Shown in pieces: positions 46,715 through 64,000 of a DNA stretch of 64,000 nt. Within the stretch, counting starts at the first letter, position 1; each line of letters starts with the position of its first letter. The stretch spans positions 66,978 through 130,977 of IMG/VR virus record IMGVR_UViG_3300005546_000001; one strand, written 5' to 3'. Origin of the DNA: a virus. Its lineage: Duplodnaviria; Caudoviricetes. The notes beneath the pieces were generated by a model. The model was not told the DNA's origin. It saw only the letters and a program-made list of their open reading frames with translations, and searched no databases. A program made the translations under genes and the position numbers.

Positions 46715-48652
46715 CTAGAATGGCGTGTCTGCTTCCGTGATCGTCGCCGTTCTCGGCGGTATACCAAAATTATCTGGTTCTGGATTTTCTGTATTTGGCC
46801 ATCTACCGATAGCGTGGCGACCAGAAGCTGCACATCCAACATGCTCCCCCACGTGACCAACGGCACGAGAGCATACCAGTCTTCCAGATGGCTGAAAATT
46901 ATGACACCACTGATCATGGGGCACACATTGACATTCTAACGGCTTTGGCGGTTCCCAACTAAAATAGTTGTGGTCATTATATTCCTTGTTTACCCGGCAG
47001 TAAATATGATTGCCTTCATGTCCCTTTACTCTTGTACACGAGTATCCCTTTAAAGTATTATATTCCTTGCACATTTTCATTCGGTCAAAAGCGCAACATT
47101 CTCTTGGTTCGAGATTTATCGGATACTCTCCGTCTTTAATCTCCGGCCATCTTTGGGCCTGCATTCCCATTGATTCCAGAGTATTTGGCTGCTGAAGGAA
47201 AGTCTTAATAAACGCGATAAGCTCCGCCCACTGCATGTTCTGTCTCATTTTGAGAACTGCTTCTGCGTGACTTCCCCAGCACATTCCATCCGATAGCATA
47301 TGAGGGTGGCCAGGAGCCTTAACTCCACCAGAGATAGTAATTTGTGGGTTAGTAGATGAATTCAACGGGATTTTGACAATTAGCGGATGTGCCGCGTCTG
47401 CTAACAGGTACTTATGAATGACTCCAACAAATTCTCCAGTCATTGTCAAATCATAAAAGTAAACGATTAGCAAATGATAGTCGGAATTATATTCAACTGC
47501 ATCAGCCATCTTTGTTATTGGCTTTGCTTCTCTCAACAGTCTGTCTTCAGAAAATCTTGTTTTAAAATCATCCGCCAGTGCTTCCTGTTCTACCAAGCCC
47601 TTTTTGTTTGTTTCTAAATCTCGTGTGAGCTTTTCAATACTGGACTGGACTCTTTTTACCGCCGCTCTGACATCAGCGCTCCTTCTGCTAAATTCCGTTT
47701 CGATAGCGTGGTTCAAGTCCGCCGCAGTTCTAGCTTTTCTCGCGACTAGGATTTTTGCTTCAATTGCAGCTTTGTATGCTTCTGGATCATCCTTCCATTT
47801 CTGGAGTTCTGGCAAAATACCAAGGATTTCTTTTCTGAGTCCGGAGACAGTTCGGGGATAGAATGCCAAAATCAAATTCCAGTTCTGCCCCCAATCTGTA
47901 GCACCGTTATCCTTGGCTTTAAACAGCGCCCCGACAAATCCTTTTTCGTCAGTGATTTTCAGAAATTCAAAATTTGAATTTATGCGAAATTCAGCATTTG
48001 ACTCACTTCTTCTCTCATCATAAGCGTAACTACGAGGAAAATACACCCACACGTTCAACCAGTCTGAATTTTTCTCAGAAACTCCGTTCGTAAAATAATT
48101 TGGAGTTGCATAGTCGATATTCTGAAACTGAACATTTTGTACTCCAAATAATTTTCCAAGCTTTTTTCCAGCGGGAACTAATGAAACTGGGATTTTCTTA
48201 TGAGAGGCTTCCGAGTAAATCACCGTGATTTTATCGAGTTCTTCTCTCTCTTCTTCTCTTAGCTGTTTTTTGGTTTTCTTTCCCGGTGTTTCTTCTTCAT
48301 CTTCTTCAACTATTGTAGTTTCCACATCTTGTCTCCATTCGTTGATTGCATGGTCGTCTATGTTGCACTCAACATGATTCCCATTGTGCCCAGATTGTCG
48401 AGTGCATATGCTTTCTCCGTGTTCATGCCCACAACTTTCCGCGCCATCAAACTCACAGTACTCACACGGATCACCGCCCCAATCTTCACAAAGCATGTGA
48501 TCGCCATCCGAATTACTCCCCGCTCCGCATGCACGGTGCGGTCCCGAGTGGCCGGGTTCTCTTGTACAATAAAATCCTCGGTCTCTCGGCCTTTGATATG
48601 TGTAGCAAAAAGTAGATTCCGTCGTGCAATTACACTCATTATGAGGAAACAT
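46715..48652 (-). CDS. E2/UBC-fold protein with coiled coil and four Cys/His-rich repeats
   Basis: GHPHMLSDGMCWG (HPH..C catalytic signature of prokaryotic E2s); four CxRxxGHxGxH repeats; sits between Ubl and JAB. Confidence 0.8.
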   Translation of the reverse strand: MFPHNECNCTTESTFCYTYQRPRDRGFYCTREPGHSGPHRACGAGSNSDGDHMLCEDWGGDPCEYCEFDGAESCGHEHGESICTRQSGHNGNHVECNIDDHAINEWRQDVETTIVEEDEEETPGKKTKKQLREEEREELDKITVIYSEASHKKIPVSLVPAGKKLGKLFGVQNVQFQNIDYATPNYFTNGVSEKNSDWLNVWVYFPRSYAYDERRSESNAEFRINSNFEFLKITDEKGFVGALFKAKDNGATDWGQNWNLILAFYPRTVSGLRKEILGILPELQKWKDDPEAYKAAIEAKILVARKARTAADLNHAIETEFSRRSADVRAAVKRVQSSIEKLTRDLETNKKGLVEQEALADDFKTRFSEDRLLREAKPITKMADAVEYNSDYHLLIVYFYDLTMTGEFVGVIHKYLLADAAHPLIVKIPLNSSTNPQITISGGVKAPGHPHMLSDGMCWGSHAEAVLKMRQNMQWAELIAFIKTFLQQPNTLESMGMQAQRWPEIKDGEYPINLEPRECCAFDRMKMCKEYNTLKGYSCTRVKGHEGNHIYCRVNKEYNDHNYFSWEPPKPLECQCVPHDQWCHNFQPSGRLVCSRAVGHVGEHVGCAASGRHAIGRWPNTENPEPDNFGIPPRTATITEADTPF

Positions 48653-48662
48653 TTACACCTCC

Positions 48663-48691
48663 AAAAAAAGGAGGCCGCCGAAGCAGCCCCC
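48663..48691 (-). terminator. Intrinsic terminator between Ubl and E2
   Basis: GGGGGCTGC-TTCG-GCGGCCTCC followed by T7. Confidence 0.85.
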
Positions 48692-48703
48692 TAATTGTTG
48701 CAA

Positions 48704-48955
48704 TTAAAGGGTTCCACCCTTTATCGATTCTTGAACTACAGTAATCAGATCGCCGTCTTCAACTTCTGTACCGGCGGATGTCTTCGTACCGTTCAGCCGA
48801 GTCTGCTCCTTCGCACCGACCGTAAAACGAGCAGCGTTCAGAGCATCATAAACAGTTGCGCCTTCCGGAAGCGCAACCTCGACAGCCGCCGAACCAAGTC
48901 GGGCGACCTTGACCAGGATAGGATCAGAAGTCTGATCCCCACGTGAATTTTGCAT
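48704..48955 (-). CDS. Ubiquitin-like (ThiS/MoaD beta-grasp) protein precursor ending GG-TL
   Basis: ILVKVARLG..EVALPEGATVYDAL..RLNG..VEDGDLITVV..IKGGTL; AGGAGA RBS. Confidence 0.88.
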   Translation of the reverse strand: MQNSRGDQTSDPILVKVARLGSAAVEVALPEGATVYDALNAARFTVGAKEQTRLNGTKTSAGTEVEDGDLITVVQESIKGGTL

Positions 48956-49098
48956 TTTGTTCTCCTACGAATCATTCGAACGATTCGCTGGGGTTGCCAG
49001 CGGCGGCGCCCATTCCGCATTTCGGGCCACTAATACGGGAGCAACTGTCTCCCTGTACTTCTGGCGCAGGGCTGGGCCGGACATTCTCCGGCGGGAAT

Positions 49099-54960: not shown

Positions 54961-54989
54961 AGAATACCACACTTGGCATTGTTTGTCAA
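54961..54989 (-). promoter_or_regulatory. Sigma70-type promoter for the repeat leader and 582-aa gene
   Basis: TTGACA (54989-54984), 17 nt, TGG-TATTCT (extended -10). Predicted +1 falls at the base of the first repeat. Confidence 0.75.
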
Positions 54990-61442: not shown

Positions 61443-62489
61443 CAAAGAGCGATACCACGAATGGAACATGGTCAAAGTACCATAATCGCTCGGCTTCAAT
61501 TATGAACTGGTGGATAATGATATCGGCTGCACATTTCACAATAAGTTGGCAAATCATCCAAAGTTATTGGAGACATTCCGGCGTGCTTTCGGACCAAATT
61601 CCAAATTAACAAAGCATTTGGGTTGGCACCAGTGTCTTGATCAGTTCTGAAGTGTTCTCTTTGAACCTTGTTTACAAAATCCCGGTCGATCATGTTTTTA
61701 CCTCCAAAGTTTTCAAAATTGCTAGACTTCAAATGTAAATAATATTCGGCGCAGCCCAGAACGCTATTCCGCGCTCATGCCGAATTTCACCTTGAGTTAG
61801 GAATACCATTGCATTCCAGAGTGTTTTGACTTCTAAAGAACCCATCCCGAATTCTTTTTGGCACTCAAACCGAACGTTGTTTAAGATTTTCACAGCTTCG
61901 TCCATAAAACACCTCCAAAGTTTGGAATAACTCGACTTCAATTACGAAAGCATCATGGATTTAGCCCTATGTGTTGAAAAACGGATTCGGGGCGAGACCA
62001 TGTTTTCTCGGCTTGCTCCACAGCCGCAACAAACCATTCTCGAAACGGAGTTGGGTCTTCCAGTTGTTCAGCAAGCTCAATGTAATTCAGCAGATGGCCT
62101 AATTCTCCATGTGAATTACTGTTGAAGATACGCTCACTGTAATCTTCAATGTTCAACTTTTTCAACGCATCTTGAATATTCATATTCTACCCCCTTCAGT
62201 TTTGAATTGTTGCAAGCAGGACTTCTTATGAAAGGTTTTGTGTTTTGGAAGTATCCCATTTGTAGGTTTCTACTGGACAACAAACAGGGCATTTGCTCAT
62301 GAAAGTGGTAATAATCCAAGGTGGAAAAAGCCATGAAATTTCATGTCTTACGCTAAATATGTATGCGACTAAACATTCAAAATGAAAAGCGGCATCACAT
62401 TCGGTTTCAGAAAAATACCCACAACAGAAAGCAGGATTAGACACTGTTTTTGAACAGATTGCACAATTCCATTGCCCTTTTGATATCAT

Positions 62490-64000
62490 TTTTATCCTCC
62501 GATATTAGCATAATGACTTCTCGGAAACAATCAGAAGAACTCAGAATCCCGGCAGGCCAGTGGTAACGAGCCACATGCCACTTGTTCACTTAAATGCTCA
62601 GTATGAGCGGGTTGCTAGCACTGCTCGGTACATTCAAGTACCCGGAGACGGAGTGCTGATTTGTTCGCGAACGGATTCATACCTGTTTCTTCTGATTGTT
62701 CCAAAAAGGTTTTGCGGTTTTTCAATAAGGTAGGGAACCGCGACCCAAAAGGCTATTTTCTGGTTTAGATGTAACAGGTGGGATTTCTCCGACAACTAGA
62801 TTAGCGAGGCAGTTGCTATAAAGAGCGAACATCAGTTCGTCGCCTTTCGGCTGCAACTTCGCGTGGTTGATCTAGATTGCCTGTCACCGCTATATAGCTA
62901 TAGCGTTGATTCGTGCTGAAGTACCAATTCAGCACATGCCCCTTACCCCCGCATCGTTTTGTAGTTTCATCATGGAATTGCTCCCATGTTCGATCCCGAC
63001 TGCTAGCGCAGTCGCCCGGTCAGGGAACAAAAGATTGCTAAATCCTTTGTCGGTTTAACTTCGGAGGGTTACGACTCGCCAAGCTCTCACCAAACTGGTA
63101 GTTTTAACAGCGAGTACCTCCGATACCGTCTTAACAGGGTAATCTCTTTTCGAGTACGCCGCGCACGTAAGGCAGCGCAACTAAAATAGTTGTCCTAAGA
63201 CTTGTCGTGCCAACGAAGTAAAGCAAACCAAAGTTTGCTAACCTCTTTCGATTCAACGAATAATTGGATTGAGGTCACAGGAGGAGTATTTTAGCCACGC
63301 TTCAGAATCTTGCGAACCCGGAAACGTCACAATTTGTGACACATCGGTCGGCGGATTCAACGCGGAAATAATGAACGCGCCACATGACGCAGTTCACCCA
63401 AAGCAGTATTCGCGCTAAATGCTGTCAATAATAGCAATGCGCTCTGTCAAAGCGGCTTACATGCTACACTCACTAGCCTTTTAGCCTTATCTATCTGCTA
63501 TCTGCGATGTTCTGTGAAGCCGCTAGGCTTCTGTGCGCAAGCTCACTGGCATTGATAAGCCGAATGAGCTTGACTGTTTAACCGGAGTAGCATGCGCCGA
63601 CCATTCCTGAACCGACGACTAGACTTCGCAAAGAGTCGTTGCTACCCGTAGCACAGAATATTCACAGCTAGGCTGTGTGCTATGCCAGCAATCCGCAACT
63701 AACTAGCCAGGGTATCAGTCACCCGATACCTGCGCCCGTATCACTACGACGCGCCCTTTGTAGTGCGGTTTGTTGCTTTGCCTATGTCACCATAGGCTAG
63801 GCACTCGAAAAGGCCAGCAATGAGCTTGTGAGGCTCACGGCTGGCCGGTTATTCGGTCGGTTGACCTACGTTAGACGGTCGGAGTTGTCGGACTCGCAAG
63901 CTCGCTGGCAGGGATCAGCGCAGGCTTCACAGCGTCTTTCTGTGCCTTTGTTGCGCCTTCCGGGAGTCCCGCGATAGCTGCTTGCCATTCCGCGCGGAAT
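62490..64000. other. ORF-free, helix-rich region; candidate large structured ncRNA(s)
   Basis: No ORF of 60 aa or more in any frame; many perfect stems, including long-range ones (62526-62539/62687-62700 and 63512-63521/63923-63932). Confidence 0.6.

Follow-up and report, generated by a model that had tools for sequence, protein, structure and literature searches.

A 1.4-kb non-coding, densely folded gap in a phage genome as a candidate modular RNA of the early operon

We analyzed a window of 64,000 nt corresponding to C1:66978-130977 of a 130,977-bp virus record, here C1 (coordinates without this prefix are window positions). Near the end of the window lies a stretch of 1381 nt that is non-coding, is structured beyond chance and carries a non-random set of hairpin loops. 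The best single reading of this gap is that of a modular RNA element, co-transcribed from the minus strand as part of a leftward early operon and built as a string of folded domains. We give this reading a probability of about 0.42 on evidence intrinsic to the sequence, and infer that such an element would be transcribed, processed and functional as RNA.

The gap and its neighboring genes

The first and last 120 bases of the record are identical. The unit is therefore a circle, or a circular assembly, of 130,857 bp, and the 120-bp end repeat is probably an assembly overlap. When the ends are joined, a 247-aa minus-strand gene wraps round the contig end. It starts at C1:734 with GAGGA ahead of the start codon, runs through C1:121-734 and continues in the window at 63871-64000, where it ends with a TAA stop codon (63871-63873). 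Since positions 63871-64000 are the coding 3' end of this orphan gene and lie outside the non-coding element, the true gap is 62490-63870. The initial annotation of this DNA had described all of 62490-64000 as free of open reading frames, which holds up to 63870 but not for the 3' end of the 247-aa gene.

The gap thus extends from the stop codon of the 247-aa gene to the start codon of an 87-aa gene, both on the minus strand. It is the largest of the genome, the runner-up in a crude whole-genome gene map measuring 479 nt; gaps of at least 50 nt total about 10% of the genome in a second gene map. The 87-aa gene, the first after the gap (62226-62500, minus strand, with its ribosome-binding site), has an ATG start at 62489 and the ribosome-binding site GGAGGA at 62495-62500. 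Its protein (62226-62489, minus strand) contains the Cys/His pattern CAIC ... CC ... C-x4-H-x2-C ... CPVCC, which resembles a RING or PHD-type zinc finger, and a role as a small E3-like partner is conceivable; the search of Pfam returned no match at E≤0.01. The 247-aa protein remained an orphan in the homologue search, and a look-up in the ESM Atlas gave no usable lead. Strain variants of this protein exist, each differing by 1 residue in 247.

The gap is part of a GC-richer stretch of about 3.4 kb (62600-64000 plus C1:1-2000), with 47-56% GC against about 42% for the genome. This stretch, made up of the gap and the upstream orphan genes, may be a separately acquired island. GC varies between 44 and 56% across the gap, where GC skew is near zero, compared with about -0.15 in the flanking minus-strand genes. 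The break point of the circular assembly (63881, equivalent to C1:1) is only 10 nt from the gap edge, and the chance of a random break falling at most 50 nt from this edge is about 0.1%. A physical end, strain variation or assembly behavior at hairpins may account for this position.

The gap is non-coding by several measures. Searched against Pfam and PHROGs, its six-frame read-through translations gave no match at E≤1, no credible small open reading frame with a ribosome-binding site was found within it, and neither code 4 nor the reading of TAG as Gln produced a filling frame of at least 70 aa. Its 3-nt periodicity of 1.95 compares with 1.77 ± 0.69 for shuffled sequences and with a genome median of 5.7, placing the gap within the lowest 5% of genome windows.

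Searches for known families and relatives gave no match. The initial annotation had suggested running cmscan against Rfam, where a direct hit to a known intron or non-coding RNA family would have spoken against a new RNA. Among 4227 Rfam families, none matched the window at the gathering score or positions 62000-64000 at E≤10; the unmatched set includes GOLLD, ROOL, HEARO, OLE, raiA, introns, riboswitches and Y-RNA-like families. ARAGORN reported neither a tRNA nor a tmRNA in the 64-kb window. A blastn search of the gap against 50,697 phage records returned nothing at 1e-5, and at E≤10 only chance matches inside unrelated coding genes. Two exact gap patterns of 20-25 nt had no match in IMG/VR, and four distant IMG/VR records found through the polymerase gave only 15-nt chance matches to the gap. 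The DNA polymerase itself has relatives at 75% (P0004; JGI, 121,839 bp), 53-57% (P0005-P0007) and 42-47% (P0008-P0011) identity, those at 42-57% coming from Logan contigs; judged by this protein, a small clade of related phages exists.

Other types of element were considered and rejected. A group I or group II intron is contradicted by the lack of an Rfam match at E≤10, by the upstream gene having its own stop codon and by the downstream 87-aa gene having its own GGAGGA ribosome-binding site and ATG. A mobile element bounded by 14-bp terminal inverted repeats would have neither a second copy in the genome nor, by eye, a target duplication. In a diversity-generating retroelement, a 25-nt repeat found here would serve as template and variable copy, but the differences between the copies are not A-specific and no reverse transcriptase was seen nearby by eye. 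An enrichment of CTAG in the gap (10 sites against 3.3 expected from the genome rate) mostly reflects the avoidance of TAG in coding sequence, about 5.4 sites being expected from composition by our estimate.

Secondary structure and hairpin loops

The structure of the gap exceeds both dinucleotide-shuffled and genome backgrounds, as is expected of structured non-coding RNAs in general. On the minus strand, the fold z-scores of its four 345-nt quarters are -4.16, -3.48, -2.06 and -6.23, while 50 random genome windows have a mean of -0.59, a standard deviation of 1.03 and a minimum of -3.32. The initial annotation had proposed shuffle z-scores as a check, and those of the quarters, taken together, exceed chance. 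Four gap segments of 187-511 nt have z-scores of -3.1 to -4.5 on either strand; the value is -3.7 for segment 62740-63130 and -4.2 for the segment that holds the domain 62518-62707. Window 62790-62939 (z -5.5) is the lowest among 872 non-overlapping 150-nt windows genome-wide. Perfect Watson-Crick hairpins of at least 6 bp occur at 7.2 per kb in the gap and at 2.26 per kb genome-wide, and those of at least 7 bp number five against 0.83 expected. Only one other 1381-nt window of the genome has 10 perfect hairpins of at least 6 bp; it lies at C1:114,600-116,000 (about 47,600-49,000 of the window) and covers the end of a 645-aa gene and the stretch following it.

The region had been called helix-rich on first reading, and by quarter z-scores, hairpin density and the lowest 150-nt window this description exceeds chance. 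All seven local stems listed at that time are present, and a 14-bp helix, 62526-62539 with 62687-62700, is exact. No perfect inverted repeat of the genome with a spacing of at most 400 nt is longer, and the only one of equal length is formed by two copies of a genome-wide palindrome. The 10-bp pair CTGTGAAGCC (63512-63521 with 63923-63932), which had been proposed as a second long-range helix, is also exact, but it is at chance level (about 1.5 such inverted pairs expected in 1.8 kb by our own estimate, three found) and its second arm lies in coding sequence. Similarly, the reported repetition of CGCAAGCTCRCTGGCA is real, extending over 25 nt at 84% identity (63536-63560 and 63895-63919), but the second copy is inside the 247-aa gene.

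Folding of the minus-strand RNA with pairing limited to 250 nt gives 42 helices with a probability of at least 0.7. Read from 5' to 3', the first feature is a terminator-like two-tier hairpin (63808-63846), in which GGCCAGC pairs with GCUGGCC and GUGAGC with GCUCAU (pair probabilities 0.99-1.00) ahead of UUUU, 25 nt past the stop codon of the 247-aa gene. Since it has only four U, below the rule of the terminator scan, we infer a leaky terminator. A 10-nt piece of this hairpin is repeated exactly (63563-63572 and 63819-63828). Judged by eye, pairing is conceivable between the copy of the 25-nt repeat inside the 247-aa gene and the 3' half of the upper stem, which would make a translation-coupled switch possible.

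Downstream of this hairpin, the limited-span fold and a loop scan show a cluster of three GUGA-capped hairpins (63711-63797) with stems of 7 bp (63780-63797), 5 bp (63736-63749) and 8 bp including one G-U pair (63711-63730), the 5-bp hairpin competing with a stem at 63742-63765. They are followed by a 6-bp hairpin with a CUA triloop (63663-63677, p 0.94) and, at 63516-63572, by a 10-bp hairpin (63538-63572) and a UAGC-capped 6-bp hairpin (63516-63531). The 10-bp hairpin has its 3' arm within the gap copy of the 25-nt repeat, the other copy of which lies at the 3' end of the 247-aa gene.

A domain of 128 nt (63174-63301) is closed by a 15-bp helix (p 0.98), in which three neighboring G-U pairs on the minus strand correspond to C-A mismatches on the plus strand. 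Half of this closing helix is made up by an exact copy of the genome-wide palindrome ACTAAAATAGT (63180-63190), which has the TTGTC extension; a near-copy of the palindrome lies at 62795-62805. The limited-span fold then places a multi-branch domain of 232 nt (62941-63172) with hairpins at 63061-63123, 63027-63050 (UAGC loop), 62997-63014 (GCUA) and 62971-62988 (GCAA, one G-U pair), and two stand-alone hairpins within 62888-62935, one of 8 bp with a 7-nt loop (62913-62935) and one of 7 bp with a GCUA loop (62888-62905). An 8-bp helix closes a domain of 117 nt (62771-62887) that holds the hairpin GCC-GAAA-GGC (62842-62851) and a hairpin at 62826-62839. The final domain, of 190 nt (62518-62707), is closed by the perfect 14-bp helix, which G-U pairs on the minus strand extend to about 21 bp. 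It ends 28 nt before the start codon of the 87-aa gene (62489) and 17 nt before its ribosome-binding site, and is a candidate double-strand RNA processing site or leader. As predicted by this fold, the gap RNA looks more like beads on a string of closed domains than like one global fold.

The loops of these hairpins, which give the clearest evidence within the gap itself, are not a random sample. Among the 14 minus-strand hairpins with stems of at least 5 bp and 4-nt loops, four have GNRA loops (background 4.1%, p 2e-3), namely GUGA at 63780-63797, 63736-63749 and 63711-63730 and GCAA at 62971-62988, whereas none of the 10 tetraloop hairpins of the plus strand does; the GUGA loops read UCAC on that strand. 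The stem of a fifth GNRA loop, GCC-GAAA-GGC, is too short for the count. A further four of the 14 are divided between GCUA and its reverse complement UAGC, two each, against a background of 0.87% (p 5e-6, or about 5e-4 by our estimate after correction for all loop classes), and this signal is equal on both strands. The stems of the GNRA and GCUA/UAGC hairpins are all different. Outside the gap, the same loop types are found only on a few weak stems of 5-7 bp with G-U pairs.

For a protein that binds duplex DNA, it is the hairpin arms that would be conserved; loops shared by unrelated stems point instead to selection on folded single strands. The loop pattern points to a single-stranded and, most simply, an RNA function. 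The same loop on unrelated stems is in this way a means of arguing for single-strand selection without relatives. The hexaloop UUGAAU is likewise common to two unrelated minus-strand hairpins (63247-63260 and 62627-62642).

Strand, transcription and alternative explanations

Neither the fold z-scores nor the total G-U counts separate the two strands, so the assignment to the minus strand rests mainly on the four GNRA loops. A is slightly more frequent at unpaired positions of the minus strand (41%) than of the plus strand (37%), and the G-U pairs in two closing helices, the 15-bp helix and the extended 14-bp helix, form on the minus strand only. The two flanking genes, too, have the minus strand as their sense strand.

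The phage appears to be transcribed from sigma-70-type promoters, as exemplified by TTGACA-17-TATTCT ahead of small RNA genes at 54989. Outside the window, two sigma-70-type promoters with perfect TTGACA boxes stand back to back at C1:5110 (minus strand) and C1:5119 (plus strand). This pair marks the divergence point of the gene strands and the minimum of the cumulative GC skew; it likely starts leftward early and rightward transcription, and the junction is a better candidate for an origin than the gap. Within the gap, a promoter scan found none with a -35 box of perfect quality, the best scoring 9/12 at 63316-63288, and the nearest upstream promoter with a perfect -35 box is that at C1:5110. 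De novo analysis of intergenic k-mers yielded no clear promoter motif. The leftward early transcript would accordingly cover the gap at 5.1-6.6 kb from its start, provided that the polymerase passes the hairpins after the 77-aa and 247-aa genes. The first of these, seen by eye between the two genes (C1:790-835, minus strand), is GC-rich and followed by UUUUCU; it is likewise terminator-like and lies ahead of the gap.

We propose the following course of events. Host RNA polymerase would start at the strong promoter C1:5110 and continue past the leaky terminator-like hairpin that follows the 247-aa gene; the next ~1.3 kb would fold co-transcriptionally into separately closed domains of 117-232 nt and stand-alone capped hairpins. 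The ~21-bp helix before the 87-aa gene, as a substrate for a double-strand-specific RNase, could then split the structured RNA from the downstream mRNA. The stable pieces that remain might serve, as RNA, as decoys or scaffolds, or they might protect the transcript or insulate it. The hairpin at 63808-63846 could, however, be an efficient terminator; with no good promoter in the gap, little RNA would then be made, which would count against the RNA reading.

Although we consider it unlikely, a cis-acting DNA element is the alternative that survives best. The gap would then be an injection-stop, packaging or genome-end region, a replication origin, or a source of hairpins in single-stranded DNA. 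A comparable region without ORFs but with many inverted repeats and palindromes lies beside the first-injected genes of phage T5 (bioRxiv 10.1101/866236). The gap itself is located 5-6.5 kb from the divergent promoter pair, behind the first block of orphan genes. The contig break 10 nt from the gap edge would suit a genome end, and the equal fold z-scores of the two strands and the strand-symmetric GCUA/UAGC signal would suit an element acting as DNA; the confinement of GNRA loops to one strand would not. Direct-repeat families are absent, the longest two-copy repeat being the 25-nt one at 84%, and one duplex-binding protein is unlikely since the hairpin arms share no sequence. An origin or terminal-repeat region, which the initial annotation had named as the alternative to an RNA, is weakened on the side of the origin. 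The gap contains no iterons and no AT-rich unwinding stretch (GC 44-56% against ~42% for the genome), and the cumulative GC skew reaches its minimum near the divergent junction at C1:5 kb, outside the gap. Nor are DnaA boxes (TTWTNCACA) enriched: two one-mismatch sites lie in the gap, at 63423 and 63658, and the window holds 151 in total against a shuffle mean of 168.

It is rather doubtful that the gap encodes a single giant ornate RNA of about 1.2-1.3 kb, possibly a multimer in the manner of GOLLD and ROOL. Structure does span the whole gap rather than one part of it, GNRA loops are typical partners in tertiary contacts, and the two GCUA and two UAGC loops could pair within or between molecules. 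Four-base loops are, however, poor kissing partners, and the limited-span fold consists of independent closed domains, while a global fold requires a closing helix that extends into coding sequence. Such an RNA would also be without its own promoter and a defined 3' end, and the gap has neither an Rfam match at E≤10 nor a tRNA neighbor. The large non-coding RNA that the initial annotation had put forward is supported as far as the non-coding nature, the structure and the non-random loops are concerned, but much less so as a single large RNA of the GOLLD or ROOL kind.

We regard as equally doubtful a non-functional remnant or spacer, carried in with a GC-richer island of orphan genes, whose hairpins would be leftovers, for example of old terminators and local duplications. 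The flanking genes are indeed orphans, GC content is raised over the gap and the next 2 kb compared with the genome, the 25-nt and 10-nt repeats are internal duplications, and blastn found nothing similar in the 50,697 phage records. Decay, however, would explain neither fold z-scores between -4 and -6, nor the record length of the perfect 14-bp inverted repeat, nor a loop bias of p 5e-6, and a phage of ~90% coding density would be expected to shed 1.4 kb of useless DNA. Least likely of all is a new class of ornate phage RNA, over 1 kb and larger than GOLLD, that would be made early and use its GNRA and GCUA/UAGC loops in a tertiary or multimeric architecture.

Comparison with known systems

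As a modular RNA, the gap invites comparison with GOLLD (RF01998) and ROOL (RF03087), whose cages are held by kissing loops and A-minor contacts (bioRxiv 10.1101/2024.12.08.627333). It resembles them in being a large, ORF-free and densely folded phage stretch with GNRA-type loops. In contrast to them, it was recognized by no covariance model, whether at the gathering score or with the limit relaxed to E≤10, and the usual tRNA-island neighbor is absent (no tRNA in the 64-kb window). Furthermore, the gap is longer (1.38 kb), is modular-looking instead of forming one conserved fold, and is not known to belong to a family of related sequences. Should the gap indeed give rise to such an RNA, few structured non-coding RNAs of phages would match it in length.

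The untranslated region of T5 known as iss or Repeat Region 3 comprises 1662 bp of non-coding DNA, whose direct repeats fall into many families and whose 8 DnaA boxes follow a fixed order (bioRxiv 10.1101/866236). Both regions are gaps that exceed 1 kb, contain numerous stop codons, inverted repeats and palindromes, and follow the first early-gene block of a phage genome of ~120-130 kb. The present gap differs in having neither direct-repeat families nor ordered DnaA boxes. If its signal acts at the DNA level, it would represent an untranslated control region of the T5 type, but one organized in a very different way.

Early phage transcripts are cut by RNase III at processing hairpins such as the T7 R sites and the hairpin of the lambda N leader, which are single hairpins of about 50-60 nt. 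The domain at 62518-62707 is similar in placing a ~21-bp helix directly before an early gene of what would be a polycistronic early operon. It differs from these sites in that the predicted helix closes a branched insert of 147 nt and is the last of many elements. If real, the RNA would come from the early operon, which in phages is the site of functions for host takeover and anti-defense.
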